Assembly: GCA_002423615.1 (NCBI GenBank)
Contig: DIKO01000049.1
Coordinates: 40,264 to 104,263 of the forward strand
From: Desulfobacteraceae bacterium UBA5616
Lineage (GTDB): Bacteria; Desulfobacterota; Desulfobacteria; Desulfobacterales; UBA5616
DNA length: 64,000 bases
Direction: 5' to 3'
Both the position numbers and the translations under genes were made by a program. Shown here piece by piece: positions 12,932 through 41,097 of this stretch; position 1 is the first letter of the stretch; each line of letters opens with the position of its first letter. The notes beneath the pieces were generated by a model. That model had not been told where the DNA came from. It made no database searches and saw nothing but the letters and a program-made list of their open reading frames with translations.

Positions 12932-15900
12932 ATGATCACAGAAAACCTTCCTGCCTTTTCCATGTCCCAATGGCAGTTTCTGGCCCTTTACCAGGCCGTG
13001 GCCAAACCCTTGTCCATCGACACCGCCGGGCATATCGTTCCTCTGTTGCCCGGGCCTTTTCTCGATCTTTTCAAAAAAGCCGTCGATCTGGGATGGTTGA
13101 TTCCAAGAGCCGAAGGGCTATATCAATTCGCAAAGGCGGCCCCTCCCGGAGTTGTCCGGAAGCTAGATAAAATCAACTCGCCCCATTATCTGACTTCGGT
13201 CGTCAACCGGATTCAGTCCGACCAGGGTATCGCCCGGGAGGCCGGAGACATTGCGGAACTCCTGCTGATCAGGGCCGGCAAAAGTCTGGATGTGGCCCAG
13301 GAAGAATATCAGCGCGCCAAAATCCATATTTCGGAAAACCGGCTGGACGAAGCGTTTTCCGCTTTTCAGAAAACCCTGTCCCTCATTGCCCTGGCCGGGG
13401 ACAGCGCCAAATCGGCCAAACTGTTTGTTTCGGTGGTCATTCATTATTCCTATTTGAGTACGCTGTATGGAAAGGCCACCCGAAAAACCTATGCCCTGAT
13501 GCAGAAAGCCCTTAAACTGTCCGAAAATATCGGTGATATCCGATCCCGGGCCGTGCTGAAAATGCAGTTGGGACTCTATCTGTTTCTGACCCATAATTTA
13601 TCCAACGCCATTTCATCCCTGTCCTCAGGACTGGATATCGTCCGGCAACTCGGGGATGAAGACATCCGGAGCCAGACGACTTCCTATATCGGCTTTTATT
13701 ACTTCATGCGGGGGCGTTACCGGGAGGCCGCCCGTTACTGCCTTCAGGCCTTTCAGGACGGTATCGAAATTAAATACAACCCCTACATCTTAAGTGTCAT
13801 GGGGTATTCCCTGGGATTCCAGGGCCGTTTTTCAACCGCCATCGGCTGCATGGATTATATCCGGACCCTGGCCAGACACCAGGCAGACCCCCAGATGGCG
13901 GCCTATTGCCGGATCGTTATCGGGCTCCTCCTGATTTTCATGGGGGATATGCCCCGGGGTAAGGCCGTGATGGAAGAGGCGATGCTCCATAACCAGAAAA
14001 AATCCCCGAACTTCGCTGAAATCCAGTATGAACTGGGAATGGGGTATGCGGAATACCTCTCCGGGGCTTTCCAATCCGCAGTGGACCACTTTAAAAATGC
14101 CTTCAGCCTTTTTCAGGGCCTCAATATGCAATACCGGAATTTTATTCCCCCATGGATGATTGAAGCCTATTACGAACTTTCCGGAAAGGGATTTTCACTG
14201 CCGGGATTTCAGGAAAATTTTCGGGATGATATGGCATTTTATATCAATGAACCCAATATCGTCCGGAAGGGGATCGCCCTGAGGATGCGCGTTCAGCGGG
14301 ATATGGCCCAGGGGAGTGATTTAAAAAACCTTGAAGCGGATTTACTGGAAAGCGAGCAATACCTGGATCAGGCCGGCGATGTTTTCGAACTGGCCAAAAC
14401 CAGGTTGTGCATGGCCGGATTAAAGCGACGTATGGGAATTCATCAACAGGCAGCCTGGTATGCCGGCCAGGCAGGACCGGAGCTGTCCCGTTACAGACAC
14501 ATGAAGATCAGTGAAGATTTATTGAGACATGTTTCGGGAATAAATCCGATGGCCGATAATAAGGGAAACCCGGAAGACATGTTCCAAAGACTTCTGGACA
14601 TGGTGGAAAATCTGTTGATCATGGATATTCAATTGAATCCCCCGAATTTTTTGTTCCGTTTTATCGTGTCATCCGCACATTTTTTAGGGGCGGAACGGGG
14701 AGCTTATTTCCATTACAGCGAAAAGGAGAAAGGTGAAAACCCGGGGTTTAACCTGATGGGCCAGTTCAACATGGATTCCGGTATTTTTGAAGACCCGGAT
14801 TTTCTTCCCTCACTGACAGCCGTCAAAACCGCATTTGATAACGGTGAACCCAGGGTTTTTATATCAGATGGAAAGGATTCTCACCAGGGTTCATTGATGC
14901 GCTCTTATTTGTGTCTGCCCCTGAAGAACGGCCCCCATGCCAGGGGCGTGTTATATTACGACAACCGGTGGCTGGACGCTCAATACAACAATGTTCCCAT
15001 GAATTCCTTGAAGCGGATCAGCATCCTTTTCGACAATGCGTTTAACCAGGTTTTTCAGATTTATCGGAGAATACGGACCGATACGGACTCCCTCATCGAA
15101 CAAAAAACGCATCTTGGCCCTGGAGAAAACAGCGATTTCATGACCATCAGCCCGGTCATGAAAAAAATGCTGAAACAAATTGACCGGATTGCCGCATCGG
15201 ATGCCCCGGTGCTGATTACCGGCGAGACCGGGGTGGGCAAAGGACTTCTGGCAAAGCGCATTCACGAGAAGAGCAGCAGAAAGGAACGGCCATTCATCGT
15301 GGTGGACCTGAACACCATCCCGGAAAACCTGGTCGAAAGCGAATTGTTCGGGTATGAGAAGGGAGCCTTCACCGGAGCCGACCGGAAAAAAATCGGTCAC
15401 CTGGAAATGGCTCACCGGGGAACCTTGTTTATGGATGAGATCGGTGAAATCCCCCATGCCCTGCAAAGCAAACTCCTGCAGTTTGTTCAGGAAAAATCCT
15501 TCACCCGGATCGGCGGCACCCAGTTGATAAAATCCGATTTCCGGCTGATCACGGCCACCAACCGGGACCTGTCGGAGGATGTCCGGAAAGGGGCCTTCCG
15601 CCTGGATCTTTTTCACCGGTTGAACGTCATTCCCTTTGTTATTCCTTCCCTGGCTGAACGGCGGGAGGACATTCTTTATCTGGCCCGTCATTTTTTGAGG
15701 AATTACGCGACCAAACATCACAAGCCCAATATCCGGCTGTCCGCTCGGCATGAGCAGATGCTTTCATCCTACCACTGGCCCGGGAATGTCCGTGAGCTCG
15801 CCAATATCATGGAACGGTGCATTCTGCTCTCACCGGAAAACCCCATCGATCTGATACTTCCCCTGAACCGGGCCCTTTCAACCGACCACCCGTTTTCCGA

Positions 15901-16075
15901 TACGCCGACCATGGAGGACCTGCAGCGGCGCTACATCGATTTTGTATTGAACCTCACCAATGGTAAAATCGGCGGCAGCAAGGGGGCCGCCGCCATTCTC
16001 GGAATGAAAAGATCCACCCTGTATACGCGGATGGATCGTCTGGGTATCCGGGGCGGCGAGAAGCGGGGTGTTTAG
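12932..16075 (+). CDS. sigma54-dependent transcriptional activator (EBP-1): unknown helical N-domain, GAF, AAA+, Fis-type HTH
   Basis: Walker A GETGVGKG (from 15221), GAFTGA (15361..15378), FRLDLFHRLNV, and C-terminal AAILGMKRSTLYTRMDRLGI. The GAF-like block includes LCLPLKNGPHARGVLYYDN. The first 550 aa or so match no sensor domain I recognise. Confidence 0.9.
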   Translation: MITENLPAFSMSQWQFLALYQAVAKPLSIDTAGHIVPLLPGPFLDLFKKAVDLGWLIPRAEGLYQFAKAAPPGVVRKLDKINSPHYLTSVVNRIQSDQGIAREAGDIAELLLIRAGKSLDVAQEEYQRAKIHISENRLDEAFSAFQKTLSLIALAGDSAKSAKLFVSVVIHYSYLSTLYGKATRKTYALMQKALKLSENIGDIRSRAVLKMQLGLYLFLTHNLSNAISSLSSGLDIVRQLGDEDIRSQTTSYIGFYYFMRGRYREAARYCLQAFQDGIEIKYNPYILSVMGYSLGFQGRFSTAIGCMDYIRTLARHQADPQMAAYCRIVIGLLLIFMGDMPRGKAVMEEAMLHNQKKSPNFAEIQYELGMGYAEYLSGAFQSAVDHFKNAFSLFQGLNMQYRNFIPPWMIEAYYELSGKGFSLPGFQENFRDDMAFYINEPNIVRKGIALRMRVQRDMAQGSDLKNLEADLLESEQYLDQAGDVFELAKTRLCMAGLKRRMGIHQQAAWYAGQAGPELSRYRHMKISEDLLRHVSGINPMADNKGNPEDMFQRLLDMVENLLIMDIQLNPPNFLFRFIVSSAHFLGAERGAYFHYSEKEKGENPGFNLMGQFNMDSGIFEDPDFLPSLTAVKTAFDNGEPRVFISDGKDSHQGSLMRSYLCLPLKNGPHARGVLYYDNRWLDAQYNNVPMNSLKRISILFDNAFNQVFQIYRRIRTDTDSLIEQKTHLGPGENSDFMTISPVMKKMLKQIDRIAASDAPVLITGETGVGKGLLAKRIHEKSSRKERPFIVVDLNTIPENLVESELFGYEKGAFTGADRKKIGHLEMAHRGTLFMDEIGEIPHALQSKLLQFVQEKSFTRIGGTQLIKSDFRLITATNRDLSEDVRKGAFRLDLFHRLNVIPFVIPSLAERREDILYLARHFLRNYATKHHKPNIRLSARHEQMLSSYHWPGNVRELANIMERCILLSPENPIDLILPLNRALSTDHPFSDTPTMEDLQRRYIDFVLNLTNGKIGGSKGAAAILGMKRSTLYTRMDRLGIRGGEKRGV

Positions 16076-16080: not shown

Positions 16081-16419
16081 TTATGAGGTGCCCGGAGGGC
16101 TTTCAATGGAATAGACATCAGCGGGCAATTCGATGGTTTTTTCAGGATGGTCAAATTTTTTTCGCTTAAAAAGTTTTTCATGGAAAAAAATCCCAAACCA
16201 TCGGATGTTTCTCCCCAGAAAAGCCAGAAACCGCCCTTTGAAAAGAATATTGGCCAACCCCCGGATATCGTCTTTTCCGACGGTGATCTGGAAATACCAC
16301 ATCACAGGAGTCACGATCTGGCCTTTGATCAGCAGATTGCCATCCCTGATTTCAACGTAATAATGCCTGAAATCCATATTCAGGACCATTGTGCCCAGTC
16401 CTTTGGACCATATGTTCAT
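16081..16419 (-). CDS. Small hypothetical protein (112 aa), tandem paralog B
   Basis: MNIWSKGLGTMVLNMDFRHYYVE... aligns with the upstream 97-aa ORF. Its start overlaps that ORF's stop (ATGA). It is the last gene of the CrtI-like operon. Confidence 0.55.
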   Translation of the reverse strand: MNIWSKGLGTMVLNMDFRHYYVEIRDGNLLIKGQIVTPVMWYFQITVGKDDIRGLANILFKGRFLAFLGRNIRWFGIFFHEKLFKRKKFDHPEKTIELPADVYSIESPPGTS

Positions 16420-16709
16420 TTCGGCTTCTCCGATATCCTCGCATAGCGTTGCCGTTTAAATGCCTTTTCATATAAAAATTGCAGCACAATGGGGAAGTTT
16501 CTCAGAAGGAAAAAAAACGTCGTGGGTTTGAAAAAAATGTTGAGCAGGCCCGGGATGTCTTCCTTGTGAAATGTTGCCTTGAAATCCCACTGAACCGGCT
16601 GGATGGTTATTCCCCGGACCACTGTGCCGTCATTTTCATTTTCAACCCAATAGCGGGAAAAATCGACTTCGAGCTGAATTTTCCCAAGACCTTCGGACCA
16701 CATCTTCAT
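16416..16709 (-). CDS. Small hypothetical protein (97 aa), tandem paralog A
   Basis: MKMWSEGLGKIQLEVDFSRYWVE...KEDIPGLLNIFFK...EKAFKR. A GGAGG lies upstream. The ORF starts 86 nt after the CrtI-like B stop. Confidence 0.55.
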   Translation of the reverse strand: MKMWSEGLGKIQLEVDFSRYWVENENDGTVVRGITIQPVQWDFKATFHKEDIPGLLNIFFKPTTFFFLLRNFPIVLQFLYEKAFKRQRYARISEKPK

Positions 16710-16795
16710 GAAATGTTTGCCTCCGTAAAAAGGATCTGAAAACCGGGCATGACATGGGCCCTGATGCCGTCGTCATGCCCGGTTTTAAAAAAGCT

Positions 16796-18469
16796 TCAAT
16801 CGTCGATATACTGTTTTACATAACGCTCGATGCTCTCCGAATATTTCCACCACTTTGTCACGCCCATGTCTTCTGCGATCCTGTTCGCGGCGATATAGCC
16901 CGGACCGCCGATGATCAATCCCCCTGGATAGGTGGAGGCGCCGCAGACATAGAGGCCTTCGATGGGGGTGCTGGTCCTGGAGCAAAGGTCATTGGGCCGG
17001 AAATACCCCATCTGCAGGGGATTGTACTCCCCGTGTTTGATGGATCCGTATTTCATGCAGGGAATTCGGCGTTCAATATCCAAGGGGCTTTCGGACGTCG
17101 ACATGACAAGATTGTCCTTGTTGAGATTTTTTAAATAACCCGACCAGGTCTCCATGATTTTGGCTTCCAGGCCTTTCTTTTTCTCTTCCCACCCCCCTTC
17201 AATCTTCCCCGGAACCAGCATCTGGAAAAAAGCCGTATGATGGCCCGGAATTCTTGTCAGGGTATGATCAAAAAGGGTTTCCATGGAACAATGACCGGCC
17301 GGCGGAGGAATTTCTCCTTCCCGGATCTGTTTTGCCATGCCCGCCAGTTCATCAGCCGAATCAATGCCGATAATGTTCATGAACGTGTTGTCGATATCCC
17401 GCTCGTCAGCCTTGTAATGCAGGGGCTCCTTGATCGCGATGTGGGTGGTGAAGAAGCTGCTTTTATCCCAGGCCCAGTTTTTGACGTAATTTTTCAATGC
17501 CGGCGAGAGATAATCTTCCCCCACCAGTTTCATGAACGTGGTCTGGGTATCCAGGCTGGATGCCACCACCTTGGCCTTGACGATCTGCCCGTCGAACAAT
17601 TCAACCCCCACGGCCCGGTTGTTCTGCATCAGAATTTTCGTGACCTCGGCGTTTTCCAGGATCAGTCCTTTGTTCCGGATGATTTCCTTGGAAAAGCTGC
17701 TGGCCACCTTGTGGGAACCGCCGATGCTGATGCATTTGTTCATGCCGGTTCTGATCATCAGCAGAGGGACCAGGTATCCAAGACCCGGTTCCGTCGGGGA
17801 AAGCCCCCACATGCAGGTCACATACAGGAACAGGGCCTTGACCCGCTCATCCGTGAACATCCGGTCGATGATTTCAACCGGGCTGTCCTCGGCAAGCTTC
17901 ATCATTTGCTTGCCGATGGCCGTTCTCTCGGTTTTAACGGCCAGTTCAATGGGCGGCAGAGGACGATAATAGGTGGCCGGGGCCAGAATTTCATCGATCA
18001 TCTGAATGAACTGTCGGGAATAGGTCTCAAAGGAAACGGCGTCTTTTCTGGAAAATTTCATGATCTGGTCCGCCGTATCCTGAATTTTTGCGGACATGAT
18101 CCAGGATGTGCCGTCTTTGAAAATAATTCCGGTCTGGCGGTTGGGCTTGACGAATTGAAGGGAATGCTCGCTCAGATTGAAATCCGAAAATGCCGGCATG
18201 TAATCCACCATCAGATGATAGGTGGCATGGGTGTTGGCGAAATAGGACGGGAACAGGATTTCTTCGGTTGCAAGACCCCCGCCCACTTCGTATCGTCTCT
18301 CCAGTAATACGACTTTAAGCCCCGCCCTGGCCAGGTAAGCGGCGGTGATCAGGCCGTTCGGGCCTCCGCCGATAACGGCCACATCGCAGGTGATTTCTTC
18401 CGGCATTTTGAACAGGGTGGGAAGATCATACTGGCAGGTGGTGTTTCCGGGATGATTATTGACTGGCAT
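16796..18469 (-). CDS. FAD-dependent oxidoreductase, phytoene desaturase (CrtI)-like family, subunit B candidate
   Basis: Dinucleotide-binding motif CDVAVIGGGPNGLITAAYLARAGLKVVLLERRYEVGGG. Length 557 aa, with C-terminal GLYVCGASTYPGG. An AGGAGGG RBS is present. Confidence 0.8.
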   Translation of the reverse strand: MPVNNHPGNTTCQYDLPTLFKMPEEITCDVAVIGGGPNGLITAAYLARAGLKVVLLERRYEVGGGLATEEILFPSYFANTHATYHLMVDYMPAFSDFNLSEHSLQFVKPNRQTGIIFKDGTSWIMSAKIQDTADQIMKFSRKDAVSFETYSRQFIQMIDEILAPATYYRPLPPIELAVKTERTAIGKQMMKLAEDSPVEIIDRMFTDERVKALFLYVTCMWGLSPTEPGLGYLVPLLMIRTGMNKCISIGGSHKVASSFSKEIIRNKGLILENAEVTKILMQNNRAVGVELFDGQIVKAKVVASSLDTQTTFMKLVGEDYLSPALKNYVKNWAWDKSSFFTTHIAIKEPLHYKADERDIDNTFMNIIGIDSADELAGMAKQIREGEIPPPAGHCSMETLFDHTLTRIPGHHTAFFQMLVPGKIEGGWEEKKKGLEAKIMETWSGYLKNLNKDNLVMSTSESPLDIERRIPCMKYGSIKHGEYNPLQMGYFRPNDLCSRTSTPIEGLYVCGASTYPGGLIIGGPGYIAANRIAEDMGVTKWWKYSESIERYVKQYIDD

Positions 18470-18547
18470 TTGTTTGCCCTCCTGGATTACAATTTTTGTT
18501 GAACCGGCAATAAATCCATATTTGCCGAAAGCTTGCCCATGCTTTTA

Positions 18548-20239
18548 TCAGGCGTTGGAAGGGATAAAATGAGGCGAAGGATACCACCATTCACCCGGTC
18601 TTAATTTCAGGTCTTCAATCAGGATGTGCATGAGGTTATAGGAAACCGCCTGCAGGGCCAGTCCTCCCGGATAGGATGTCTGGTGGCACAAATAAAGGTT
18701 TTTAATGGGGGTCCGGTATCGAGAGAGTTCCGGAAGGGGCTTCTTCTGGTACCACTGTTCTTCTTCCTGGCTGATTCCCATCCAGTTGCCTCCCACAAAA
18801 GCCATATTTCGCAGACTGGAGTCATAGGGGGTATTGACGAATTTGGCCACGATCTTGTCATCGGTGAGATTGGGAGCGACTTCCCTGATCTTCTCCATCA
18901 TCACCTCCACGATGTCCCATTTGGCGTTGTTGACCGCCAAAGGTCCGTCCCGGTGGTATTCGGGAGGGGGAACCTCGAGATAAATGGGGGTGAATACATG
19001 GTACCCTTCAGGCGTGTGACAGGATGCGTCAAAGACATCATGGTTGAGGAACATCAAAACCATGTCTTCTTTTCTCATGGGGTGGGTGTTTTCCGAATAG
19101 ACCACCCGTTCCATATTGAACATCGCCTCCCGGGAATCCGTGTTGATCACCGTGCAGTTGGGGTAGAGGCCGTTTGAAAACATTTCTTCCGCCTCCCCTT
19201 TGAATCTGGGCATTTCCCGGGTGACCAGGGACAGGACGAAGAGGCTGCCCCCCTTTAAATTAATGCCCCTGACCCGTTCCAGGAAGCCCGCGTCCAGTTC
19301 GCGTTCGGGGATCAGTTCCAGGAACGTCGGTTTGACGTGGGTATTGGAAAGGACCGCCTTGTCCGCGTAAATTTTACGGTTTCGGGCCGTTGCAGTGTCC
19401 GCCAGGATAACCCCCTTGGCTTCCCGGTCCTCGACGATGATTTCTTCAACCTTGCTGTTGGTGTAAATTCTGGCCCCGTAATGCATGGCGCATCTGACCA
19501 GGGCGTGGGTCAACGAATGCATGCCCCCCCGGGGTTGCCCGCAGCTGTACCCGAGGAGCATATTGCAGCAGTACCCGGGTACCGCCGTGCCTTTCCAGTT
19601 GGGATGAGGGCCGTTGTACCAGGATCCCATGGCCGATACCATCTTCATTTGTTCGGATTCAAACAGGGTGTCCAGCAATTCCATGGTGGGCATGTGATTC
19701 CATGAATCCTCGTAAAGCGGATGGTTGTATTTCCTGAATACCTTTGCCCAGGGAAGGTCTTCCATGGCAAGGGAAATATGGGGCGGCGGGGGCGGGGTCC
19801 AGTAGATGGATCTCAACAATTCGGCCAGCCTTGCCGGGTCCCCGTTGATGGTGGCCATGAGTTCATTGGCTTTCAGGTCTTTGGCCGACATTTTCTTGAG
19901 CGCCAGATTCATTGCGGCCTCGTTTTTGACGTTTCCGCCGAAAAGCTGCCCATTTCCGTCGGAAGTGACCCCTCCGCTTAAAACATTGAAATGGACCATG
20001 CGGAAACCGAATTTATGCAGTTCCAGCTGCTCGAAAGCCGGCGCTGCGCCTCCGTATAAATAGGTGGCATGGGGGTCGATTTTACATCCGGGCATAGGTT
20101 CGGTGTTTTCCGCGCCTCCGCCGCATTCCCCCCTTTCTTCGAGAATACAGACCGTAAGTCCGCATTTTCCCAGATAACCGGCAATGCTGAGGCTATTGGT
20201 TCCTCCGCCGACGATGACGACATCATATACTTCTTTCAA
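18548..20239 (-). CDS. FAD-dependent oxidoreductase, phytoene desaturase (CrtI)-like family, subunit A candidate
   Basis: YDVVIVGGGTNSLSIAGYLGKCGLTVCILEERGECGGG, 563 aa, with C-terminal LYLCHQTSYPGG. The start is a TTG preceded by AAAGGGGGA. Confidence 0.8.
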   Translation of the reverse strand: MKEVYDVVIVGGGTNSLSIAGYLGKCGLTVCILEERGECGGGAENTEPMPGCKIDPHATYLYGGAAPAFEQLELHKFGFRMVHFNVLSGGVTSDGNGQLFGGNVKNEAAMNLALKKMSAKDLKANELMATINGDPARLAELLRSIYWTPPPPPHISLAMEDLPWAKVFRKYNHPLYEDSWNHMPTMELLDTLFESEQMKMVSAMGSWYNGPHPNWKGTAVPGYCCNMLLGYSCGQPRGGMHSLTHALVRCAMHYGARIYTNSKVEEIIVEDREAKGVILADTATARNRKIYADKAVLSNTHVKPTFLELIPERELDAGFLERVRGINLKGGSLFVLSLVTREMPRFKGEAEEMFSNGLYPNCTVINTDSREAMFNMERVVYSENTHPMRKEDMVLMFLNHDVFDASCHTPEGYHVFTPIYLEVPPPEYHRDGPLAVNNAKWDIVEVMMEKIREVAPNLTDDKIVAKFVNTPYDSSLRNMAFVGGNWMGISQEEEQWYQKKPLPELSRYRTPIKNLYLCHQTSYPGGLALQAVSYNLMHILIEDLKLRPGEWWYPSPHFIPSNA

Positions 20240-20363: not shown

Positions 20364-20379
20364 AGCATTTTTCATGCCA
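20364..20379 (-). promoter_or_regulatory. sigma54 (-24/-12) promoter candidate P2
   Basis: The minus strand reads TGGCAT-GAAAA-ATGCT with correct spacing. It sits about 125 nt upstream of the CrtI-like A start, in the divergent region shared with EBP-2. Confidence 0.55.
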
Positions 20380-20592
20380 ATAAGAATACCCACTCCCGAC
20401 CGAGAGTTACATCATCATAAGAAACCGATATCACGTTGAATAAAAATCAATGACGATAAAAGATGATTTGGTCCCTGATGCGGTTCAGAAAAATGTCTTT
20501 TTATCGACACCCGAATGACGGTAATTCAACAAAGAACGTCCATATTCGGACAACGTGCTTGATTTATGGCGCCCGAGTCCGTATAAATAGAA

Positions 20593-23500: not shown

Positions 23501-23889
23501 GGAATGTCAGGGAATTGAAAAATGTCATGGAAAGGGCGGTGTTGCTGTCAAGAAGCGAAAGACTGGACCTCGGTCAGTTGAATCCCGGCTCATTTTTATC
23601 TCCAACCCAGGCGCTGCTCCCTGAAAAACAGGAAATCCTGGACGACGTCAGTGAAGAAGCGTTTAAGCAAGACCTGACCCTTGAAGCGCTGGAACGCAGC
23701 TATGTCCGCCGGGTTCTGGAAAAAAGCCGGGGAAAAATCAGCGGACCGAACGGGGCTTGTGAAATCCTGGGGATAAAAAGAACCACGTTGTACAGCCGCA
23801 TGAAAAAATTGGGCCTTGAAAACCAGAGGGTCGCGGTAAAGCCTGTAAAAATTTCCCGGGGGGAAGCAAAGCCAAAGCCTTTGCCTTGA
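20593..23889 (+). CDS. sigma54-dependent transcriptional activator (EBP-2), same architecture as EBP-1 and EBP-3
   Basis: GETGVGKE (from 22939), GAFTGA (23080..23097), FRQDLFYRLNM, and the HTH ACEILGIKRTTLYSRMKKLGL. The N-terminal TEQWEFLSVLDALEKPVSLDVAGKIFPILP aligns with the other two. An alternative start at M20 (20650) is possible. Confidence 0.9.
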   Translation: MTITVIPHDFLSNYPTRCRMDAEPIKITTEQWEFLSVLDALEKPVSLDVAGKIFPILPAPFLKLLGREDFPALIQESEPGFFGISGDIPEWILEKIKSMNDSRRLTDLIERLYDTHLFKRIDPDIISRLLERTGRTRDMAELEIDQARKALKNGEQSQAMAHLWHVVKQLFGMPEDPEHDPLFISATLKLSDLCFSLGTGFMELPRFLKKARLMAQKMGDRRSHALIHLNLSIFLHIAGQHDESLSALSEGLKEVESLGDEDILNRSAAFIGLNFFLQGMFRDAEPYLERATQDYELQGGDSMTMGPLPMPFLLGYCLANLGHFHDAVGGLECFRRMAGKRSQDALATTIRSILGTVLQMAGKRDEALYHLESASREALESRNSFAMAIADGGLIYQAFLDGDLEKARNRMDNPSGYRGKEGFLRLYTAPHILEMIFEIEAVGLPPHPRLNFDNEMSWINKAPNIHAKGALFRLLARGEMGKTGETPEVASFLEKSETWLKISGDPVELAKTWLEKARYHLLKNDTDKAKVLTQRAYQFLTQHCRWIFPDDLLTMVKKEDKTEQVGESYSGFLRRFMEMFEYKSHGENVERVLEELLKNACRLFKAERGGIFRAGEKESSVLPVLWSGHNLTSDDISDPDFSPSLEIIRSVMQRHESLSRRLQRDQPVFKDQFPIKAVLCLPFFQGMEPAGAFYFDNLYLDNDFDLPDPALMTQMAVFMSDHVAQRLDYRRLRRETSMWSSARTVQIEQLRREDFIFQSPVMKRLLSQAEKVARTDSTLLIQGETGVGKELLARQLHKMSIRDSGPFEVVDLTAIPESLLESELFGYEKGAFTGAERQKRGRFELTRKGTLFLDEIGEIPLSFQVKLLRVLQEKTFVRVGGTKTLASNFRLIVATNRDLAEEVKSGRFRQDLFYRLNMIPLTVPPLREREDDIVLLAGYFLARYAAKHGKSALSLSPEDEAVLRAYPWPGNVRELKNVMERAVLLSRSERLDLGQLNPGSFLSPTQALLPEKQEILDDVSEEAFKQDLTLEALERSYVRRVLEKSRGKISGPNGACEILGIKRTTLYSRMKKLGLENQRVAVKPVKISRGEAKPKPLP

Positions 23890-23970
23890 CAGGCATGATG
23901 GTTTTGCCTATAGTTTTTGAAACTTTCCTTTAAATCACTGCTTTTAACACTGCTGTTTTCGGAGAAGGCG

Positions 23971-25692: not shown

Positions 25693-26708
25693 TGGACAAA
25701 CCTCATTTCGTCGTCATCGGAAACGGGCCGGCCGGGAATCAGGCGGCTTTGACCTTAAGGGAACTGGACCCGGATGCCCGTATAACCCTGATCAGTAAAC
25801 ACCTTGGGGGGTGCTTTCATCCCTATCTGCTCCCCCGGATGATTTCCGGGGAGATCTCGGAAGAGGATATTTACCTCTATTCGCCGAGCTCTTACAAGGA
25901 AAACAACATAAAATTTCGAAAAGGGCAGGAAGTGGTGCGGCTTGATCTTGAACGGCATGAAATTTATATGGACCATAAAGAGGTGCTGCGATTCGACGGA
26001 CTTATCATTGCGGTGGGGGGTAAGCCCAGAATCCCTGAAAACCTGGCTGTTTTCAGCGATATCCTGTATACGCTCAAAAATCCCGGCGATGCCGGAAAAT
26101 GGATTCAAAGACTGAAATCCGTGGAATCCGTGCTGATGATCGGCGGGGACTTGACCTCCTTCGCCTTGACAAAAGCGCTGCTTTCCATGAGAAAAAATAT
26201 CTGGTTTATGTTCGATGAAGAAGCTTTCTGGCCGGTGCGATTCAATGAAAAACTGTGGGAAGATGCATCCTGCAGGCTCGCCGGCCTCGGCGTAAACGTG
26301 CTGCCCCTCTCCAGGATAGAAAGCCTGTCCGTGATAAATGAGAACGAGGTGCGAATCGAGATGGGAGGCGAGGCGATTTGTGTCGGGATGATCGGCGCCT
26401 TTTTCGGGCTGATGCCGGATATCCGGTTTCTGGCCGGGAGCGGATTGAAAATCGACAGGGGGATTCTGGTGGATGAATATTTGAACACCGGTTTTGCGTC
26501 TGTATATGCCGCCGGCGACTGTGCCCAGATCTATCACCCGGAACTGCAGGACTATTGGGTTTCCATAGGTCATGAGAATGCCTTGGGTCTGGGCCGGATC
26601 GCCGCCATGAACCTTGTGGGCGCAAATATCAAAACCGAGGTGGATCAAAGGAGCGTATTTCAGGTGCAGGGAGTGAACGTCAATACATCCTGGTGGATGG
26701 AGTTCTGA
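25692..26708 (+). CDS. Pyridine nucleotide-disulfide family FAD/NAD(P)-dependent oxidoreductase
   Basis: MDKPHFVVIGNGPAGNQAA and YAAGDCAQ motifs. The start overlaps the upstream stop by 1 nt (TGATG), indicating translational coupling. Confidence 0.75.
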   Translation: MDKPHFVVIGNGPAGNQAALTLRELDPDARITLISKHLGGCFHPYLLPRMISGEISEEDIYLYSPSSYKENNIKFRKGQEVVRLDLERHEIYMDHKEVLRFDGLIIAVGGKPRIPENLAVFSDILYTLKNPGDAGKWIQRLKSVESVLMIGGDLTSFALTKALLSMRKNIWFMFDEEAFWPVRFNEKLWEDASCRLAGLGVNVLPLSRIESLSVINENEVRIEMGGEAICVGMIGAFFGLMPDIRFLAGSGLKIDRGILVDEYLNTGFASVYAAGDCAQIYHPELQDYWVSIGHENALGLGRIAAMNLVGANIKTEVDQRSVFQVQGVNVNTSWWMEF

Positions 26709-26709
26709 T

Positions 26710-28476
26710 ATGACCAAAGTGGATATGACCATTGAAATTTGCGGGATGTCCGGGGATGGAACCATAGCCGCGGGCCAACTTCTCAATACGGCCTTGATTC
26801 AGGCCGGTCTTTACCTCATCGCATTTGATTCCTACCCCGCCGAAATCCGGGGATTCGGCCGATGCGTAACCCATTCCCGGGTGGGAGATGAAGAAATGCT
26901 GGCCTTGAACAGCAAGGCCCATGTACTGATATCCCTGGATGATGAACAATCTTTATCCCGGCTTCCCTTTCTGGATGATGAGGCCGTCATCCTCTTTGAC
27001 AACCGTCCACTTTCCTATGTGTCCTCGGAAAAGACGCTTCCCGCCCATATTGAACCGGAGATGCATCCTTACGGCATTCCTTTCGGAGACCTGGCATCCG
27101 AGGCCATGGGGAGCCGGCGCGGCCGGAACATGGTCGCGTTGGGAGGATTTTCTGGAATCTTCGGACTTCCGCCGGGGTATTTTCATAACGCGATTCGCAA
27201 GAAATTCGGTTCCAAGGACGATAAAACCGTTCAGGACAATATCAGGTGCTTTGACGCCGGCATTCAATACGCTCTGGATCATTTCAAGGGCTTGCCGGTA
27301 AATGGGTTGGCGGCTCAGAGGGAAGTGGCCCCGAACGACAGGCTTCTTGTGTCCGGGAACGAGGCTGTAGCCAAAGGAGCCCTGGCCGGGGGGCTGAAAT
27401 TTTATTACGGATATCCCATCACCCCGGCCACGCCGGTTATGGAGTTTTTATCCAGGGCCCTGCCCGAGGTCGGGGGAGCGATGATGCAGATGGAAGACGA
27501 AATGGCCTCCATCGGCGGTGTTTTGGGGTCTTTTTTTGCCGGCAGGAGAGCCATGACGGCGACTTCGGGTCCCGGCTTCGCCCTGATGACCGAACTGATC
27601 GCTCATGCCACGATTACCGAGACCCCTGCGGTCATCGTCAACGCGCAGAGAGGGGGGCCGGGCACGGGACTTCCCACCAAAACGGAACAGTCGGATCTCG
27701 GGGCGGCTGTATTTGGCGGCCCCGGTGATTCTGCCCGCATCGTTCTGGCCCCGGCCAATGTCAGTGAATGCTATTATTTTACGGCCCGAAGTTTTCAGAT
27801 CGCGGAAAAATACCAGTCGCCGGTAATTCTTCTGACGGATTTTTTCCTCCACAACCGGGTGGAAAGCATTCCGGAACCAAAGGCAAAGGCGGCTGAGGTC
27901 GCCGACGGAAACCTGTATCCGGGTCCGACGGATAAAGATCCATACCGGCGGTATAAAATAACGGATTCCGGCATATCCCCCAGGGCGATTCCCGGCATGG
28001 AGGGGTATATTTTTCGTGCCACCGGCCTTGAGCATACAGAAAACGGGATTCCCGATTATACGCCCGGTCTGCATATGAATATGAGCGAAAAACGCCACCG
28101 CAAGATCCAGGGGGCATTGCAGGATCTGCCCGAACCTGTGCGGTTTTTCAAAGAGGAGAAACTGGATATCGGCGTGGTCGCATGGGGTTCCACCTTCGGC
28201 TCTGCTCTGGAGGCCGTTAAAAAAGCCAGGAAAGAGGGGATTCCGGCTGACGTGCTGAAGATATCCTCCATTTATCCCTATCACGCCAATCATATCAAGG
28301 AGTTTATGGACATATGCGGCGAGGTGTTGATTCCGGAACTGAATCTTGAAGGGCAGTTGGCCAATCTCATCGGGCATCTTCATCGAAAATGCGTCTGGCG
28401 CTTGAATCAGGTGACGGGGGTCCCCATGCCGGCCAGTGATATTCTGGCCAGGATCCGGTCCATACTCGGATCTTAA
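26710..28476 (+). CDS. korA: 2-oxoacid (2-oxoglutarate-type):ferredoxin oxidoreductase, fused gamma-alpha subunit
   Basis: Gamma-like N-terminus ICGMSGDGTIAAGQLL, then the alpha domain NEAVAKGALAGGLKFYYGYPITPATP. Length 588 aa. Confidence 0.85.
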   Translation: MTKVDMTIEICGMSGDGTIAAGQLLNTALIQAGLYLIAFDSYPAEIRGFGRCVTHSRVGDEEMLALNSKAHVLISLDDEQSLSRLPFLDDEAVILFDNRPLSYVSSEKTLPAHIEPEMHPYGIPFGDLASEAMGSRRGRNMVALGGFSGIFGLPPGYFHNAIRKKFGSKDDKTVQDNIRCFDAGIQYALDHFKGLPVNGLAAQREVAPNDRLLVSGNEAVAKGALAGGLKFYYGYPITPATPVMEFLSRALPEVGGAMMQMEDEMASIGGVLGSFFAGRRAMTATSGPGFALMTELIAHATITETPAVIVNAQRGGPGTGLPTKTEQSDLGAAVFGGPGDSARIVLAPANVSECYYFTARSFQIAEKYQSPVILLTDFFLHNRVESIPEPKAKAAEVADGNLYPGPTDKDPYRRYKITDSGISPRAIPGMEGYIFRATGLEHTENGIPDYTPGLHMNMSEKRHRKIQGALQDLPEPVRFFKEEKLDIGVVAWGSTFGSALEAVKKARKEGIPADVLKISSIYPYHANHIKEFMDICGEVLIPELNLEGQLANLIGHLHRKCVWRLNQVTGVPMPASDILARIRSILGS

Positions 28477-28500
28477 ACAAATTATAATAAGGAGCTTTGA

Positions 28501-29334
28501 GTGAAAACGCCCGGAAAGAGCCTTGCCGGTAAAATAACTGCCATTGCCGAATCGCGGAAATTTTCCATTCGTTCCGGAAGCCTGCCCACATGGTGCCCGG
28601 GTTGCGGCTATTTCGGTATTCACCAGGGAATCAATGATGCCATTCAGCAGACCGGGATTGCCCATCACCGGGTGGTTGTGGTATCGGGCGTCGGCTGCGC
28701 CGGCCGCTACCCGTTTTTTGTCAATGCGTACGGATTTCATTCGGCTCACGGACGGGCATTGCCTGTAGCGACAGGGGTTAAAACAGCAAATCCGGAATTA
28801 ACGGTTTTTGCCGTTGGAGGAGACGGCGACGGCATCGGCATCGGGGGTGGACATTTGCCCCATGTCGCCAGAAAAGACATCAATATCAATTACATTCTAT
28901 TTGATAATTCAATCTATGGTTTAACCAAGGGGCAACCCTCTCCCAGTTCCCCCATCGGGCTAAAAACCAAAGCTTCGCCCGGAGGAAATGACGCTGCCCC
29001 GCTGAACGCCACCCTGATGGCCCTGGCATACGGTGCCTCTTTCGTGGCGCGCCTGTACGCAGGTGACCCCCGGGCCATTGCAACGGCGGTTTTGGAAGGC
29101 ATCAAACACCCCGGGTTCTCTTTTTTCCACGTTTATACTTCCTGCGTGACCTTTGACAAACAGAATAAAACCTGGGACCACCTCAGAGAACGGACCCATT
29201 CTCTTCCCCGGGATTATGATGCGTCGGACCAAAAAAACGCCATGAACCTCGTCCTCGATGATGATTATGCCATGGGGATAATTTACAAAAAAAAGGGTAA
29301 TCGCCCTGAAGATCAGAGTGATCACCCCTTTTAG
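28501..29334 (+). CDS. korB: 2-oxoacid:ferredoxin oxidoreductase beta (ThDP-binding) subunit
   Basis: PTWCPGCGYFGI and GGDGDGIGIGGGH motifs. The start is a GTG, 6 nt after AAGGAG. Confidence 0.85.
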   Translation: MKTPGKSLAGKITAIAESRKFSIRSGSLPTWCPGCGYFGIHQGINDAIQQTGIAHHRVVVVSGVGCAGRYPFFVNAYGFHSAHGRALPVATGVKTANPELTVFAVGGDGDGIGIGGGHLPHVARKDININYILFDNSIYGLTKGQPSPSSPIGLKTKASPGGNDAAPLNATLMALAYGASFVARLYAGDPRAIATAVLEGIKHPGFSFFHVYTSCVTFDKQNKTWDHLRERTHSLPRDYDASDQKNAMNLVLDDDYAMGIIYKKKGNRPEDQSDHPF

Positions 29335-29352: not shown

Positions 29353-30579
29353 TTAGAAGTTGGTTCCCAGAGCCGCGGGGGTAAACCGCTCCTTATCCAT
29401 GGGGGCATCCGCGGTAATCGTCCATAACAGGTTGTTGCTCCAGAAATTGTTTTTCAGATCGGTCAGGGAAGAAGAGCACTGGGTCCAGGCCGGCTGTTTC
29501 TGAGCCGTGGCATAATTGATGACGGCGTTGACGCATCCTTTCCAAAGGTTGCCCTGTTTGTCGTAAACATGGGCATATATCACGTGATAGACGAAATCCT
29601 CGATAAACAGGGTTTTCCTGGATTCCGGGTGCCGGGGATTCACCGGAACGACATCCACGACGAAAAAGTTCCGGACCTCATAAGGATCGTCAGGACCGTT
29701 GACCACGGGATGCGGATAACCCTTCTCATATTTGGTTCCCGGCACACACTTGGTCTGCTGGGCCATCAGGGCCAGCATCTTTTTTTCGGCGATCAGGGTC
29801 GGTTTCCATTCGTTGAGCCGCCCGTCAAACCCGTAAAAATCATCCCAGGTAAAAGGGGTCCCCCGAACCGGGTTTGCTCTTTCACTGGATACCAGTCTCA
29901 AGGTTCTCCGGAGAGTGGGTATGTAAGTCCACATATCGTCATTTTTCGTCGGATCGTCATACCGCCAGGCCAAGGTGGCCATATCCTTGTTCGGCGGGGT
30001 CCTGGAGTTCAGGAGCAGGGCTGAATAAAGGTTTTGGTTGTTGGGCAGGGTGGGTTTGGGGTCGACGGCGGTCCTGTGGGCATAGAACAGCATGTCGATC
30101 TGGGTCAGATAGCTGCTGATGGGGCCTCCTTTTCTCTGCTGGGTGTACCAGTACCCGTCGTCATAGGAGTATCCGTCCGATCGCCAGCGGTAATAATGAT
30201 TCCACATGATTTTTATGGCTTTGTTGGGTTCCTGGGGATCGGGGAAGGGTTGCCCGGCGATAAATCCCTGGATCGTGCCGTCGGGATTCAGGGTTGTCTT
30301 TCCGGCGTTTTGCTTGGTGGCTTCGGTGTAAGTCGAGGGGACGTCGACATTGGTTTTTCCCTTGACATGAATGACGGCCGGGGAAACGATTCCCCATCCA
30401 TCCTTGATAAAACGCTGCATGATTTCGGGGAAATAATCATTGTATTGATCAATATTGGCGGAATTGATCACGTCTCCCGGTTGAGGATCCGCCGCTATGG
30501 CAGGTCCGATCGGTACCATCCAGATGGATAATAATACAATGAACGCAAAAACCAGGCTCAATCTATTGATTTGAAACAT
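29353..30579 (-). CDS. Secreted DUF1329 family protein (LolA-like fold), copy 2
   Basis: Signal peptide, then GDVINSANIDQYNDYFPEIMQRFIKDGWG and DDMWTYIPTLRRTLRLVSSERANPVRGT, which are collinear with copy 1. The start is placed at the second ATG (30579), 7 nt after GGAGG. Confidence 0.75.
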   Translation of the reverse strand: MFQINRLSLVFAFIVLLSIWMVPIGPAIAADPQPGDVINSANIDQYNDYFPEIMQRFIKDGWGIVSPAVIHVKGKTNVDVPSTYTEATKQNAGKTTLNPDGTIQGFIAGQPFPDPQEPNKAIKIMWNHYYRWRSDGYSYDDGYWYTQQRKGGPISSYLTQIDMLFYAHRTAVDPKPTLPNNQNLYSALLLNSRTPPNKDMATLAWRYDDPTKNDDMWTYIPTLRRTLRLVSSERANPVRGTPFTWDDFYGFDGRLNEWKPTLIAEKKMLALMAQQTKCVPGTKYEKGYPHPVVNGPDDPYEVRNFFVVDVVPVNPRHPESRKTLFIEDFVYHVIYAHVYDKQGNLWKGCVNAVINYATAQKQPAWTQCSSSLTDLKNNFWSNNLLWTITADAPMDKERFTPAALGTNF

Positions 30580-30815
30580 TAACATACCTCCTGATTAGGG
30601 TTGAGCTGTTCCTTTGAAGCAGTTGGTTTTACAACGGCATTCGGAAAAAAGTTCAACAAAATGAATGAAATTTATATAATAGATATTTAAAAAAATATTA
30701 TAAGTCAAGTTAAAAATAAAATCAGCTTTTTTGCCGGCCTTGCCTGCCATGAAGGGATTGGAAACATGGAGGTAGAACCGGTCATATCCAAAAAGACCCG
30801 ATTGGGTCATTGTCG

Positions 30816-30991: not shown

Positions 30992-33900
30992 ATGAGTTTG
31001 AAAGTCCCTGATTTTTCACCAGCGCAATGGGAATTTATAGCCGCAACCCAGGCCTTTGAGGAGCCGGTATCGGTTCATATCATCGGAGCCCTTGTGCCCC
31101 TGTCTCCGGGGGAAATTTTGGATCTGCTTCGAAAAAGCCTTAAATTAAAATGGATTCACAGATCCGAGGAAGACCTGTTTTCATTGACCGCAGATATTCC
31201 CGAGCAGGTGGCGGCTGTTTTACAGAAAATAAATACACCTGAAAAAATCGCGGGAATCATTGAATTTCTTGAAACAAAGGGGCTGGTGGAACAGGTTCCC
31301 GGGGGTGCATATGCCAGACTGCTTCAAAGATCCGGAAAAGAGAAAAAAGCCATCAGGCTGGAAATGGACATGGCCATTGAGGCGCTGAAAAAAGGAGATA
31401 AAGAAGGCGCTAAGGTCCACATCCAGCAAGTGGAGGCCCTGCTTCCCGCCATAGAAGGGTCCCCGGACAGTCATCCCTGGTTTATACAGAGCGCGATCGA
31501 ACTTTCACAACATTGCGAGGCGAGGGCGGTTGGATTTTCCCTGGTATTCGGCCTGTTGGAAAAAGTCCTTGTCATGGCCCACGGCATCGGCGATGAAAGG
31601 AGCTGGACCATCGCTAATTTCCTGCTCGGCAGGGCTTACTGGAGTGTGAATAAACTGCAGGAGGCCATTCAATTTTTATCCAGGGGCAAGGCCAAGGCGG
31701 AGGAACTCGGCGACAGCGATATCCTGACCCAATCCGCCCCGTTTGTCGGCATTTACTATTTTATTAAAGGTCTTCATAACCAGGCCGTCCCCTACCTTGA
31801 AATGGCGGTGGAGTTCGCCGAGGACAGCGACAAGTATCCCATGAATTTTGAATCCCCCATTTTACTCGCCTATTGCGACGTCGACCGGGGAGATTTCCAT
31901 CGGGCTATCGGGAAGATTGATTTTTTCAGGCATTCGGCCCTGCGGGTTGAGGATTACTACATCGCTTCGCTGTATCGCGCGGTTCTGGGCATCATCCTCT
32001 GGCTCATCAAGAAAAGAAAGGAATCCCTGTTCCATCTGGAGAGAAGCCAGACCGACGCTTTGGCCACCCAGAACATGGTAGCGTACTGGACAAGCCTTTA
32101 CGGTCTTTCCGCCTTATATTTGAGTGAAGGGGATATCGAAACAGGACTTGCCATACTGAAACAGGCAATAAAAATCGCTGAGCAATTCGGCATGGGGCAT
32201 CAAATTTTTCACTCCATTTTCCTTGAAAGCTATGCAACGGTTGAACAGGCCGGATGGAAGCTCCCCGCCGGTTGGAGCTTCAACGAACTATTTGAGCGGA
32301 TCATGAGGGAGCCGAATATCCATGTGCAAGGGGTGGCCTTACGTATCCGCGCCTCCAGGACCATGTTGATGTCGCCCTATGAATCCGCGCCGGTGATAAA
32401 GGACCTGGACCACAGCGAAGTGTTGTTGAAAAAATGCGGCGATCCCGTGGAACTGGCCAAAACCCATATTGAAAAAGCCCGGTATTATTTAAAGCAGAAA
32501 GATACGGAAAAGGCAAGGGAACTGACCTATGCGGCATACCAGTTGATGTCCGGATACAGTGAGGTTTTTTTTCCGGATGACCTTCGCTTTCTTCTGGGAG
32601 ATGAGAACAAGGAGATTCGGTCACGGCAGGAACCGGAGGATATGGTCGAACCCTTTGTCCGGATGCTGGAGGAACTGATCCCCGGTCCGTTCCAAACTCG
32701 GGAAATTGATGCCCTGCTGTCCACCCTTTCGCGGTTTTTCAGGGCTGAAAGATCAGCCTTGTTTTTATTTCAGGACCAGAAGGGGAAAAACTATGAAATA
32801 AAGGCTGCGAGAAATTTGTCGCAGAGCATTATTCAGGCTGAAAATTTTCGTGATAACCTGGCCGTCATCTTTAAAAGCGTTCACGAGAAAAAACCCATCG
32901 TCATTCAATCCAGCGGTGTACGAAATCGCCTGGCCTCGGGTAGCCGTTTATCCATGTTATGCCTCCCCTTGATAGAGGACAATAAAGTACTCGGCGTTTT
33001 GTACTTTGATAATTCCTACCTGGACAATTGCTTTGATTTTATCAAAACGCCGACCCTCAGCCGTTTGGGGCACTATTTGACCAACGTTATCGGAAATTAT
33101 TTGCGGATTGAACAGAGAGCCGCGTCCGTGGAAACGACCCCGCAGATGAACACCGTCATGGATATAGCGGGAAATCAAAATATTTTCGCCGAAGATCCCA
33201 ACATGAAGCGTATTTTGCAGCAGGCGGAAAAACAGGCCCGGTCGGATGCGGCCATTCTGCTCATGGGGGAGACCGGGGCCGGAAAGGAAGTACTGGCCAG
33301 GTGGATTCACCGCATGAGCAACCGGAAGCGAAACCCCTTTGTGGTGGTGGATCTGACGACCATCCCCGAGAATTTAATGGAAAGCGAATTGTTCGGGCAT
33401 GAAAAAGGCGCTTTTACGGGAGCGGACCACCAGAAAATCGGCCGTGTGGAATTGGCCCATCACGGCACGTTGTTCATTGATGAAATCGGAGAAATTTCAC
33501 GCGGTCTTCAGACCAAGCTCCTGAGACTTCTTCAGGAGAAATCCTTTGTCAGAATCGGGGGAACAAAGACCCTCATCTCCGATTTTCGGCTCATCTCCGC
33601 AACAAACCGCAATCTTACCGAAGAAATTGCCGCAGGTCGATTCCGCGAGGACCTGTATTATCGGCTGAATGTCCTTGAGCTCACCATCCCTCCCCTGAGG
33701 AACCGGAAAAAGGATATCCTGCCGCTGGCCCGGTATTATCTTCTCCATTATGCCAAAAAATACCATGTTTCAATGCCGGAGATCAACCAGGAACAAGAGT
33801 CGGCGCTTATGGAATATCATTGGCCGGGAAACGTCAGAGAACTTAAAAACGTTATTGAAAGAGCGGTCATTGTTGCCGACGGCGGTCCGCTTGAATTTGA

Positions 33901-34099
33901 TTTCACCCTGAGAAGCCTCGAACACGAAAACAACCCGTTCGCTGATTTACCAAGCCTGGACGAAATTCAACGCCGTTACATCCGATATGTCATGGAGCAC
34001 ACAAAAGGGAGAATCGGAGGTCCGGAAGGCGCAGCTGAAATCCTGGGGATGAAAAGGACAAGCGTCAATTCCAGGATGATTCGCCTGGGTTTGAAATAA
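30992..34099 (+). CDS. sigma54-dependent transcriptional activator (EBP-3), same architecture as EBP-1 and EBP-2
   Basis: GETGAGKE (from 33266), GAFTGA (33407..33424), FREDLYYRLNV, and the HTH AAEILGMKRTSVNSRMIRLGL. The GAF-like block includes LCLPLIEDNKVLGVLYFDNSYLDN. Confidence 0.9.
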   Translation: MSLKVPDFSPAQWEFIAATQAFEEPVSVHIIGALVPLSPGEILDLLRKSLKLKWIHRSEEDLFSLTADIPEQVAAVLQKINTPEKIAGIIEFLETKGLVEQVPGGAYARLLQRSGKEKKAIRLEMDMAIEALKKGDKEGAKVHIQQVEALLPAIEGSPDSHPWFIQSAIELSQHCEARAVGFSLVFGLLEKVLVMAHGIGDERSWTIANFLLGRAYWSVNKLQEAIQFLSRGKAKAEELGDSDILTQSAPFVGIYYFIKGLHNQAVPYLEMAVEFAEDSDKYPMNFESPILLAYCDVDRGDFHRAIGKIDFFRHSALRVEDYYIASLYRAVLGIILWLIKKRKESLFHLERSQTDALATQNMVAYWTSLYGLSALYLSEGDIETGLAILKQAIKIAEQFGMGHQIFHSIFLESYATVEQAGWKLPAGWSFNELFERIMREPNIHVQGVALRIRASRTMLMSPYESAPVIKDLDHSEVLLKKCGDPVELAKTHIEKARYYLKQKDTEKARELTYAAYQLMSGYSEVFFPDDLRFLLGDENKEIRSRQEPEDMVEPFVRMLEELIPGPFQTREIDALLSTLSRFFRAERSALFLFQDQKGKNYEIKAARNLSQSIIQAENFRDNLAVIFKSVHEKKPIVIQSSGVRNRLASGSRLSMLCLPLIEDNKVLGVLYFDNSYLDNCFDFIKTPTLSRLGHYLTNVIGNYLRIEQRAASVETTPQMNTVMDIAGNQNIFAEDPNMKRILQQAEKQARSDAAILLMGETGAGKEVLARWIHRMSNRKRNPFVVVDLTTIPENLMESELFGHEKGAFTGADHQKIGRVELAHHGTLFIDEIGEISRGLQTKLLRLLQEKSFVRIGGTKTLISDFRLISATNRNLTEEIAAGRFREDLYYRLNVLELTIPPLRNRKKDILPLARYYLLHYAKKYHVSMPEINQEQESALMEYHWPGNVRELKNVIERAVIVADGGPLEFDFTLRSLEHENNPFADLPSLDEIQRRYIRYVMEHTKGRIGGPEGAAEILGMKRTSVNSRMIRLGLK

Positions 34100-41096: not shown

Positions 41097-41097
41097 T

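Follow-up and report, generated by a model that had tools for sequence, protein, structure and literature searches.

Three paralogous sigma-54 activators with a predicted winged helix and TPR superhelix beside catabolic operons of a Desulfobacteraceae bacterium

The stretch of DNA analysed here (hereafter the window) comprises 64,000 nucleotides from Desulfobacteraceae bacterium UBA5616 (assembly GCA_002423615.1, contig DIKO01000049.1, positions 40,264 to 104,263 of the forward strand) and contains genes for three long sigma-54-dependent activators, which we term EBP-1, EBP-2 and EBP-3 (Table 1). By their sequences all three are bacterial enhancer-binding proteins (bEBPs), every defining feature that could be tested being present, and no further bEBP is encoded within the window. 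They share the Pfam order GAF, Sigma54_activat, AAA_lid_14 and HTH_8, the Sigma54_activat domain (PF00158) reaches 218-225 bits where the cut-off is 20.2 (E 7e-67 to 9e-65), and Walker A (GETG(V/A)GK), Walker B (DEIGE), the GAFTGA motif and the arginine-finger region are invariant in a three-way alignment. The GAF domain sits directly N-terminal to the AAA+ domain, and the NifA model aligns from the GAF onwards in EBP-2 and EBP-3. Only the GAF of EBP-3 exceeds the Pfam cut-off of 22.4 (33.8 bits), while those of EBP-2 (19.7 bits) and EBP-1 (13.8 bits) fall below it but are collinear. Similarly, the helix-turn-helix (HTH) domain at the C-terminus is above the HTH_8 cut-off of 22 in EBP-2 (29.0 bits) and sub-threshold yet collinear in EBP-1 (20.1 bits) and EBP-3 (15.5 bits), with the motif G..GAA..LG.KR..L..RM..LG kept in all three.

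Upstream of the GAF domain each protein carries an N-region of about 550 residues. Taken alone (~545-567 aa), these N-regions are homologous in every pairing (BLASTP E 2e-61, 1e-51 and 4e-92) at 25-33% identity, compared to 42% in the C-terminal halves. The original prediction, made from the letters and their open reading frames (ORFs), had described three paralogous and collinear sigma-54 activators, and the ORFs, the Pfam order and the BLASTP comparisons agree with it; the three N-terminal motif blocks that it quoted are all present in the three-way alignment. It had also seen no REC, PAS, V4R/XylR-N or P-loop motif in the N-region. Indeed, none of the three proteins gives a Pfam match at E<=1 to the REC, PAS, V4R/XylR_N or ACT families, and residues 1-560 are likewise free of P-loop, AAA or NB-ARC matches, all of which lie within the sigma-54 AAA+ domain. 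The ORF of EBP-2 probably begins too far upstream: given that the database cluster representative is 1079 aa long and that the paralogues have nothing corresponding to the first 19 residues, the true start is probably Met20 (window position 20650).

Structure prediction and Foldseek searches, which had been proposed as a check, indicate that the N-region is not the single domain it was taken for, but is modelled as two: an acidic winged helix of ~110 aa, followed by a superhelix of ~11 tetratricopeptide repeats (TPRs). For residues 1-546 of EBP-3, an AlphaFold2 model derived from a family alignment of 10 sequences (mean predicted local distance difference test score, pLDDT, 86.6), consists of a helix-helix-helix-strand-strand unit at residues ~10-65 and an all-alpha run of ~22 consecutive helices at ~104-535, and a separate model of the first 112 residues, based on a 59-sequence alignment, reached a pLDDT of 96.4. 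The winged helix was identified by fold search only: its Foldseek matches are the winged helix-turn-helix domains of MarR, SarZ, ZitR and IclR (probability 0.99, E ~0.02), while a winged-helix profile found nothing significant among PDB sequences (best E 0.13). One homologue (P0016) has a weak Pfam match to MarR_2. Since the domain is acidic throughout the family (mean net charge -3.75, median pI 4.6) and its ‘recognition’ helix reads P-G-x-L-L-D-L-L, DNA binding is unlikely, and we infer that the domain serves protein contacts and is not a further DNA-binding domain.

Evidence for the TPR superhelix comes from several directions. The Pfam family TPR_12 (cut-off 30.1) is matched by EBP-1 (33.4 bits) and EBP-3 (34.0 bits), with EBP-2 below the threshold at 28.6 bits. 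Searching the PDB with a single N-region sequence yielded marginal TPR matches only, and the family profile matched the TPR domains of LGN/Pins at E 5.7e-13. Foldseek returned LGN, APC5, NprR, Rap and the STAND-TPR structure 6mfv (E 1e-5 to 1e-4, TM 0.4-0.6; probability 1.00 for the first four), a spread that points to a generic TPR superhelix and not to any specific characterised sensor. In the family alignment, the conserved blocks ‘GDxRS’ and ‘LGDEDI’ correspond to the usual inter-repeat turns of TPR_12-type repeats, and PNIHLRGVALRLRA and GDPVELAKT are family-specific motifs near the C-terminal end of the solenoid.

The N-region had been called TPR/MalT-C-like, of which the first half stands and the second does not. 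A potential explanation for the fold, nevertheless, is that the winged helix and TPR represent the remnant of a STAND/MalT-type regulator that, having shed its NTPase, became fused to the AAA+ engine of a bEBP and retained MalT-like sensing. The order of winged helix then TPR mirrors the C-terminal half of STAND proteins, 479 columns align to the STAND-TPR 6mfv (TM 0.42), and sub-threshold matches to TPR_MalT exist (E 6e-5 to 1e-4). However, these matches amount to 22.9, 9.4 and 22.1 bits in the three proteins against a cut-off of 45, the family profile aligns to E. coli MalT with an hhalign probability of 1.7%, no MalT chains occur among the PDB profile matches, and the winged helix resembles generic MarR/IclR folds. 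A specific relationship to MalT is rejected on the TPR_MalT scores and the hhalign comparison, and we consider descent from a STAND regulator improbable.

Table 1 Features of the window discussed in the text (positions in window coordinates; residue ranges refer to the encoded proteins)
Feature	Position	Strand	Description
EBP-1	12932-16075	+	1047 aa; winged helix ~aa 5-113, TPR superhelix ~114-535, degenerate GAF ~575-715, sigma-54 AAA+ 739-974, Fis-type HTH 994-1036
EBP-2	20593-23889	+	1098 aa as ORF, probably 1079 aa; winged helix ~aa 28-130, TPR ~131-560, GAF 588-718, AAA+ 756-998, HTH 1029-1073
EBP-3	30992-34099	+	1035 aa; winged helix ~aa 5-113, TPR ~114-535, GAF 573-674, AAA+ 732-970, HTH 989-1029
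Winged-helix domain of EBP-3	31004-31330	+	Helix-helix-helix-strand-strand plus three helices; AlphaFold2, Foldseek
TPR-like superhelix of EBP-3	31331-32596	+	~22 helices; AlphaFold2, PDB profile search, Foldseek, alignment
-24/-12 sigma-54 promoter-like site TGGCATGAAAAATGCT	20364-20379	-	Divergent from EBP-2, upstream of the CrtI-like oxidoreductase operon
TGTC-N8-GACA inverted repeats	20494-20509, 20537-20552		First exact, second with one mismatch; candidate upstream activating sequence for EBP-2
Likely EBP-2 target operon	16081-20239	-	Two CrtI/CrtO-family FAD oxidoreductases (18548-20239, 16796-18469) and a 112-aa ORF (16081-16419)
Perfect (11/11) sigma-54 promoter-like site TGGCACACAGATTGCA	34237-34252	+	138 bp past the EBP-3 stop codon, preceded by an A/T-rich tract
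Likely EBP-3 target operon	34349-45985	+	Opens with a 73-aa ORF
Sigma-54 promoter-like site TGGCATATCCATTGCA	46546-46561	+	~150 bp upstream of a thiolase-like gene, probable ATG ~46709
Sigma-54 promoter-like site CGGCACGGCCTTTGCT	11001-11016	-	~60 bp upstream of the probable acyl-CoA dehydrogenase start, ~10938

Phylogenetic profiling, also proposed at the outset, places the N-region well beyond this genome. An exhaustive hidden Markov model search with the N-region profile, covering 1.84 billion representative proteins clustered at 50% identity, returned matches in at least 309 protein clusters (E<=1e-30), almost all of them in Desulfobacterota. Among the matches listed, most are 1020-1070 aa long with the match starting near residue 100, the layout of a winged helix, TPR and bEBP; at the looser E<=0.001 there are 21,202 matches, presumably mostly generic TPR proteins. 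Short proteins (~425-490 aa) among the family matches look like truncated fragments ending near an FPDD motif, and were for that reason rejected as stand-alone TPR proteins. An alignment-based pattern scan of GTDB species representatives recovered 71 loci, almost all in Desulfobacterota (Desulfobacterales, Desulfatibacillum alkenivorans DSM 16219, Syntrophales and Desulfomonilaceae), together with a few metagenome-assembled genomes labelled SAR324 or Bacteriovoracaceae; a single-sequence scan of genome contigs with the EBP-3 N-region found no close relative. It might be supposed from the low N-region identity between the paralogues (25-33%) that this part is fast-evolving and largely non-functional helical filler, attached to what are otherwise ordinary GAF-type bEBPs. 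The conservation data refute that idea, to which we attach next to no credence: the N-region is matched by all the clusters counted above, its TPR portion is 63-66% identical among orthologues (close to the AAA+ domain), and the family alignment contains 25 invariant and 22 near-invariant positions, besides which the AlphaFold2 models are confident. The description of the N-region as unrecognised was only partly right. No characterised TPR-containing bEBP turned up in the literature searched, but the automatic names given to relatives by the Joint Genome Institute (JGI) read ‘transcriptional regulator with GAF, ATPase, and Fis domain / tetratricopeptide (TPR) repeat’. The family is consequently widespread and already auto-annotated as TPR-containing, but uncharacterised.

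Family members fall into two size classes. A short form of ~925-950 aa lacks the winged helix, and a long form of ~1030-1100 aa includes all three proteins of the window and adjoins varied genes. The short form is a tight orthologous group in which a divergent operon with AMP-ligase, acyl-CoA dehydrogenase and thiolase-like genes is kept in at least 17 genomes. Its loci include L005, L006, L010, L011, L013, L019, L021-L023, L026, L028, L029, L033, L047 and L048 in our numbering; most of them carry a near-perfect sigma-54 promoter, which lies ~150-200 bp upstream from the start of the regulator, and L013, from D. alkenivorans DSM 16219, provides a cultured representative. Neighbouring genes differ between branches of the family.

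Sigma-54 promoters offer a link between these regulators and their neighbours. We scored the consensus TGGCAC-N5-TTGCW out of 11 and counted sites that lie opposite in strand to the regulator gene and no more than 500 bp upstream of it: a match of at least 10/11 is present in 30 of 51 related loci, compared to a background of 0.015 per 500 bp in the same DNA, and just downstream of the regulator gene there is none among the 51. From these promoter positions, family members appear to activate adjacent catabolic operons. In the window itself the sites at 34237 (11/11), 46546 and 11016 (both 10/11) and 20379 (9/11, conserved in orthologues) follow the consensus, and the catabolic operons adjoining the three paralogues are different ones, in agreement with the earlier suggestion of substrate-specific diversification.

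EBP-2 has four orthologous loci, with 59-62% identity in the N-region. The promoter-like site divergent from it is kept at the equivalent position in three of these (L031, L056 and L014), preceding the first gene by ~130-150 bp. L031 and L056 retain the likely target operon in synteny, with identities of 81-84% for the oxidoreductase pair and 69-84% over the operon, and in L014, where the locus lies at a contig end, the regulator-proximal oxidoreductase gene is kept. By comparing the orthologous intergenic regions we found the TGTC-N8-GACA repeats, which lie 115-190 bp upstream of the promoter at 20379 and have counterparts at the matching position in L031, L014 and L056, with 2-3 copies per locus; an inverted-repeat search (seed 6, length 12) found none in the intergenic region of EBP-2. 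Promoter and upstream repeats together have a classical enhancer-promoter layout, in which the repeats are candidates for the enhancer. On the other side of EBP-2, after a gap of 28 bp, a block at 23917-29334 encodes a GltD-like Fe-S flavoprotein and a second pyridine-nucleotide-disulfide oxidoreductase, and continues with a two-subunit 2-oxoacid:ferredoxin oxidoreductase. Since the orthologues of EBP-2 in L031 and L056 are not followed by this block, it stands outside the conserved unit.

At EBP-3 the promoter-like site lies downstream of the regulator gene, on the same strand, 97 bp ahead of the 73-aa ORF (34349-34570), which has a strong GGGGG ribosome-binding site and for which no homologue was found in related loci. 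The operon then encodes an HMG-CoA-lyase-like protein, a thiamine pyrophosphate (TPP) enzyme resembling 2-hydroxyacyl-CoA lyase or acetolactate synthase, an acyl-CoA ligase, a four-subunit enzyme similar to benzoyl-CoA reductase/2-hydroxyacyl-CoA dehydratase, and an acetyl-CoA hydrolase/transferase-GNAT protein. The four-gene set (39798-43877), consisting of two HGD-D subunits and two BcrAD/BadFG ATPases, resembles either a bzd-type (N/O/Q) benzoyl-CoA reductase of class I or a 2-hydroxyacyl-CoA dehydratase together with its activators, and scores below all equivalog cut-offs. Since the genes after the thiolase-like one include acyl-CoA dehydrogenases, more of the region past 46546 may be under sigma-54 control.

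Near EBP-1, the mechanically called acyl-CoA dehydrogenase ORF (TTG at 11005) overlaps the promoter-like site at 11016-11001, the real start probably being the ATG at ~10938. A 38-bp imperfect palindrome is located at 11126-11163, 110-150 bp upstream of that site, and a GC-rich hairpin at 11228-11267 looks like the terminator of a DUF1329 gene. Paralogous DUF1329/LolA-like genes (11318-12529 and 29353-30585, both on the minus strand) lie divergently upstream of EBP-1 and EBP-3 respectively; no sigma-54 promoter was found upstream of either. In L056 a DUF1329 homologue is situated downstream of the EBP-2 orthologue. The minus strand at 52354-63648 holds an unrelated catabolic cluster, with an alkyl sulfatase (53450-55477), an APH-family kinase, a protein with the N-domain of LarA-like lactate racemase, a LutB-like Fe-S protein and a TPP enzyme similar to indolepyruvate/2-oxoacid oxidoreductase.

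The question of which part of these proteins senses can be approached through the rates at which their domains diverge. Between EBP-2 and its orthologues in L031 and L056, identity is 50-55% in the winged helix, 63-66% in the TPR, 35-40% in the GAF and 69-75% in the AAA+ domain, while between the window paralogues the corresponding values are 29-32%, 25-33%, 20-25% and 53-57%. The TPR is thus nearly as conserved as the AAA+ domain among orthologues and divergent among paralogues, whereas the GAF drifts everywhere. Because the TPR is constrained within a lineage that keeps the same target, and divergent between lineages with different targets, the pattern speaks for the TPR solenoid being the input that determines specificity, for either a ligand or a partner, and for the GAF being a coupling element. 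We infer, as had been suggested, that the N-region is a sensor.

Under the mechanism that we propose, each paralogue would bind its enhancer via the C-terminal HTH (in EBP-2, on the TGTC-N8-GACA repeats) and would then activate the neighbouring catabolic operon: the divergent CrtI-like oxidoreductases for EBP-2, the downstream CoA-ligase/TPP-enzyme/benzoyl-CoA-reductase-like operon for EBP-3, and possibly the acyl-CoA dehydrogenase operon at 11016 for EBP-1. The TPR solenoid, aided by the acidic winged helix, would bind either a metabolite specific to the pathway or a partner, be it protein or peptide, and the fast-evolving GAF would serve as a transducer that, as in NorR/NifA-type bEBPs, holds the AAA+ domain inactive until a signal is received. 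Taken jointly, that the three proteins are functional sigma-54 activators of neighbouring catabolic operons, built as winged helix, TPR, GAF, AAA+ and HTH with the TPR as input, is the reading towards which we lean on balance, with moderate confidence.

Several points weigh against it. TPR solenoids bind peptides or proteins more often than metabolites. A structural or oligomerisation role, linked in each orthologue to the surfaces of its own GAF and AAA+ domains, would be compatible with the conservation pattern as well. Moreover, the short-form branch is entirely without the winged helix, so this domain is dispensable for the basic mechanism. As regards DNA targets, EBP-1 and EBP-3 have no divergent sigma-54 promoter, the assignment of EBP-1 to the acyl-CoA dehydrogenase operon at 11016 is a guess at a candidate, and the DNA upstream of the EBP-3 promoter yielded no inverted repeat (seed 6, length 12). 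Finally, TGTC-N8-GACA occurs 15 times across the window against 17.9 expected, which is not above chance, so that a function for the repeats is argued only by their position and conservation.

A more specific proposal is that the winged helix-TPR solenoid itself binds a small molecule directly as its receptor, the ligand being for instance an acid derived from the substrate or a CoA thioester; this we regard as possible but rather unlikely. If true, this would be the first TPR-type effector-binding regulatory domain in sigma-54 activators, in effect a sixth bEBP input class, and the family would give Desulfobacterota a diversifying toolkit, made up of metabolite-specific switches that serve the anaerobic catabolism of fatty acids and hydrocarbons; it may have been recruited from a STAND-like sensor with a winged-helix domain and TPR. 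Alternatively, the TPR may be a docking platform for a trans-acting anti- or co-activator, or may mediate a self-association that controls hexamer assembly, leaving any small-molecule sensing to the GAF; this too we hold only tentatively, and would not expect. Trans-acting partners have precedents in NifL for NifA and PspA for PspF. The nearest structural matches of the solenoid (LGN/Pins, APC5, Rap and NprR) are TPRs that bind proteins or peptides, the acidic winged helix looks like an interaction module, and the GAF is an established ligand-binding regulatory domain in group 3 bEBPs (PMC7175178). However, the GAF is the least conserved domain among the EBP-2 orthologues and sub-threshold in EBP-1 and EBP-2, which would be odd for a ligand pocket, and the loci share no conserved candidate partner gene, their neighbours varying by branch.

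The family is a marker of catabolic operons under sigma-54 control in sulfate reducers and syntrophs of hydrocarbon-impacted habitats, and so lends itself to regulon prediction, while the paralogues could serve as specific biosensors if their ligands were found. The conserved units of regulator, promoter and operon are offered as testable, given that one member of the family belongs to the cultured strain D. alkenivorans DSM 16219. The original prediction is on the whole largely upheld, with corrections to the number of domains, the likeness to MalT and the existence of prior TPR annotation.

Among known systems, the group 3 GAF-type bEBPs (NifA, NorR and FhlA) share with these proteins a GAF immediately before a clade-6 AAA+ domain with GAFTGA, a C-terminal Fis-type HTH and, as would be expected, a mechanism in which the GAF represses the ATPase until a signal relieves it. 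NorR, NifA and FhlA are indeed the best NCBIfam matches (E 1e-88 to 1e-104), but these cover the GAF and AAA+ only, and the equivalog cut-offs are missed by a wide margin for NifA (336-340 against 528.85), NorR (350.8 against 476) and FhlA (316 against 830). Unlike these regulators, the EBPs possess the additional winged helix and TPR module of ~550 aa before the GAF, their GAF is degenerate and fast-evolving, and their neighbours are catabolic genes rather than nif, norVW or hyc. The GPMC regulator and DagR, NCBIfam models with long N-regions of their own, were matched in the AAA+ domain only.

With the group 2 regulators XylR, DmpR and EtpR, the last a XylR/DmpR-type regulator of anaerobic degraders (PMC4630880), the EBPs have in common that they are one-component, and predicted to be effector-responsive, sigma-54 activators adjoining, and often divergent from, a catabolic operon. 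The input differs, being winged helix, TPR and GAF instead of the V4R, XylR_N or PAS domains of those proteins, none of which was detected in the EBPs. MalT, LAL and AfsR regulators of the STAND class likewise place a winged helix before a long TPR (SUPR) solenoid, which is the effector sensor that controls an oligomerising NTPase activator of transcription. In contrast to them, the EBPs have no STAND NTPase or P-loop upstream of the TPR, their winged helix begins at about residue 5, and their output is a sigma-54 AAA+ domain with a Fis-type HTH rather than LuxR or SARP.

The RRNPP receptors (Rap, NprR, PlcR and AimR) also join an N-terminal helical or HTH-like domain to a TPR solenoid, and the fold similarity to NprR and Rap is measurable (E 2e-5 to 3e-4, TM 0.4-0.6), although the N-terminal domain of the EBPs is a MarR-like winged helix. 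RRNPP proteins, found in Firmicutes and phages, bind a small ligand (a secreted oligopeptide) in the TPR groove, have an XRE-type HTH or three-helix bundle, and lack an AAA+ output. No adjacent gene for a secreted pro-peptide of the RRNPP kind is evident beside the EBPs, and no conserved gene for a small secreted peptide was seen. Signal passage from non-receiver regulatory domains to the AAA+ ring is an acknowledged gap in the understanding of bEBPs (PMC7175178), and the same review lists RR/PRD, PAS/V4R/ACT, GAF or no regulatory domain, with TPR absent (Table 1 therein). As a predicted input the N-region is unusual for a bEBP, as had been anticipated, and a TPR solenoid upstream of a GAF domain constitutes an input type missing from the current five-group scheme.

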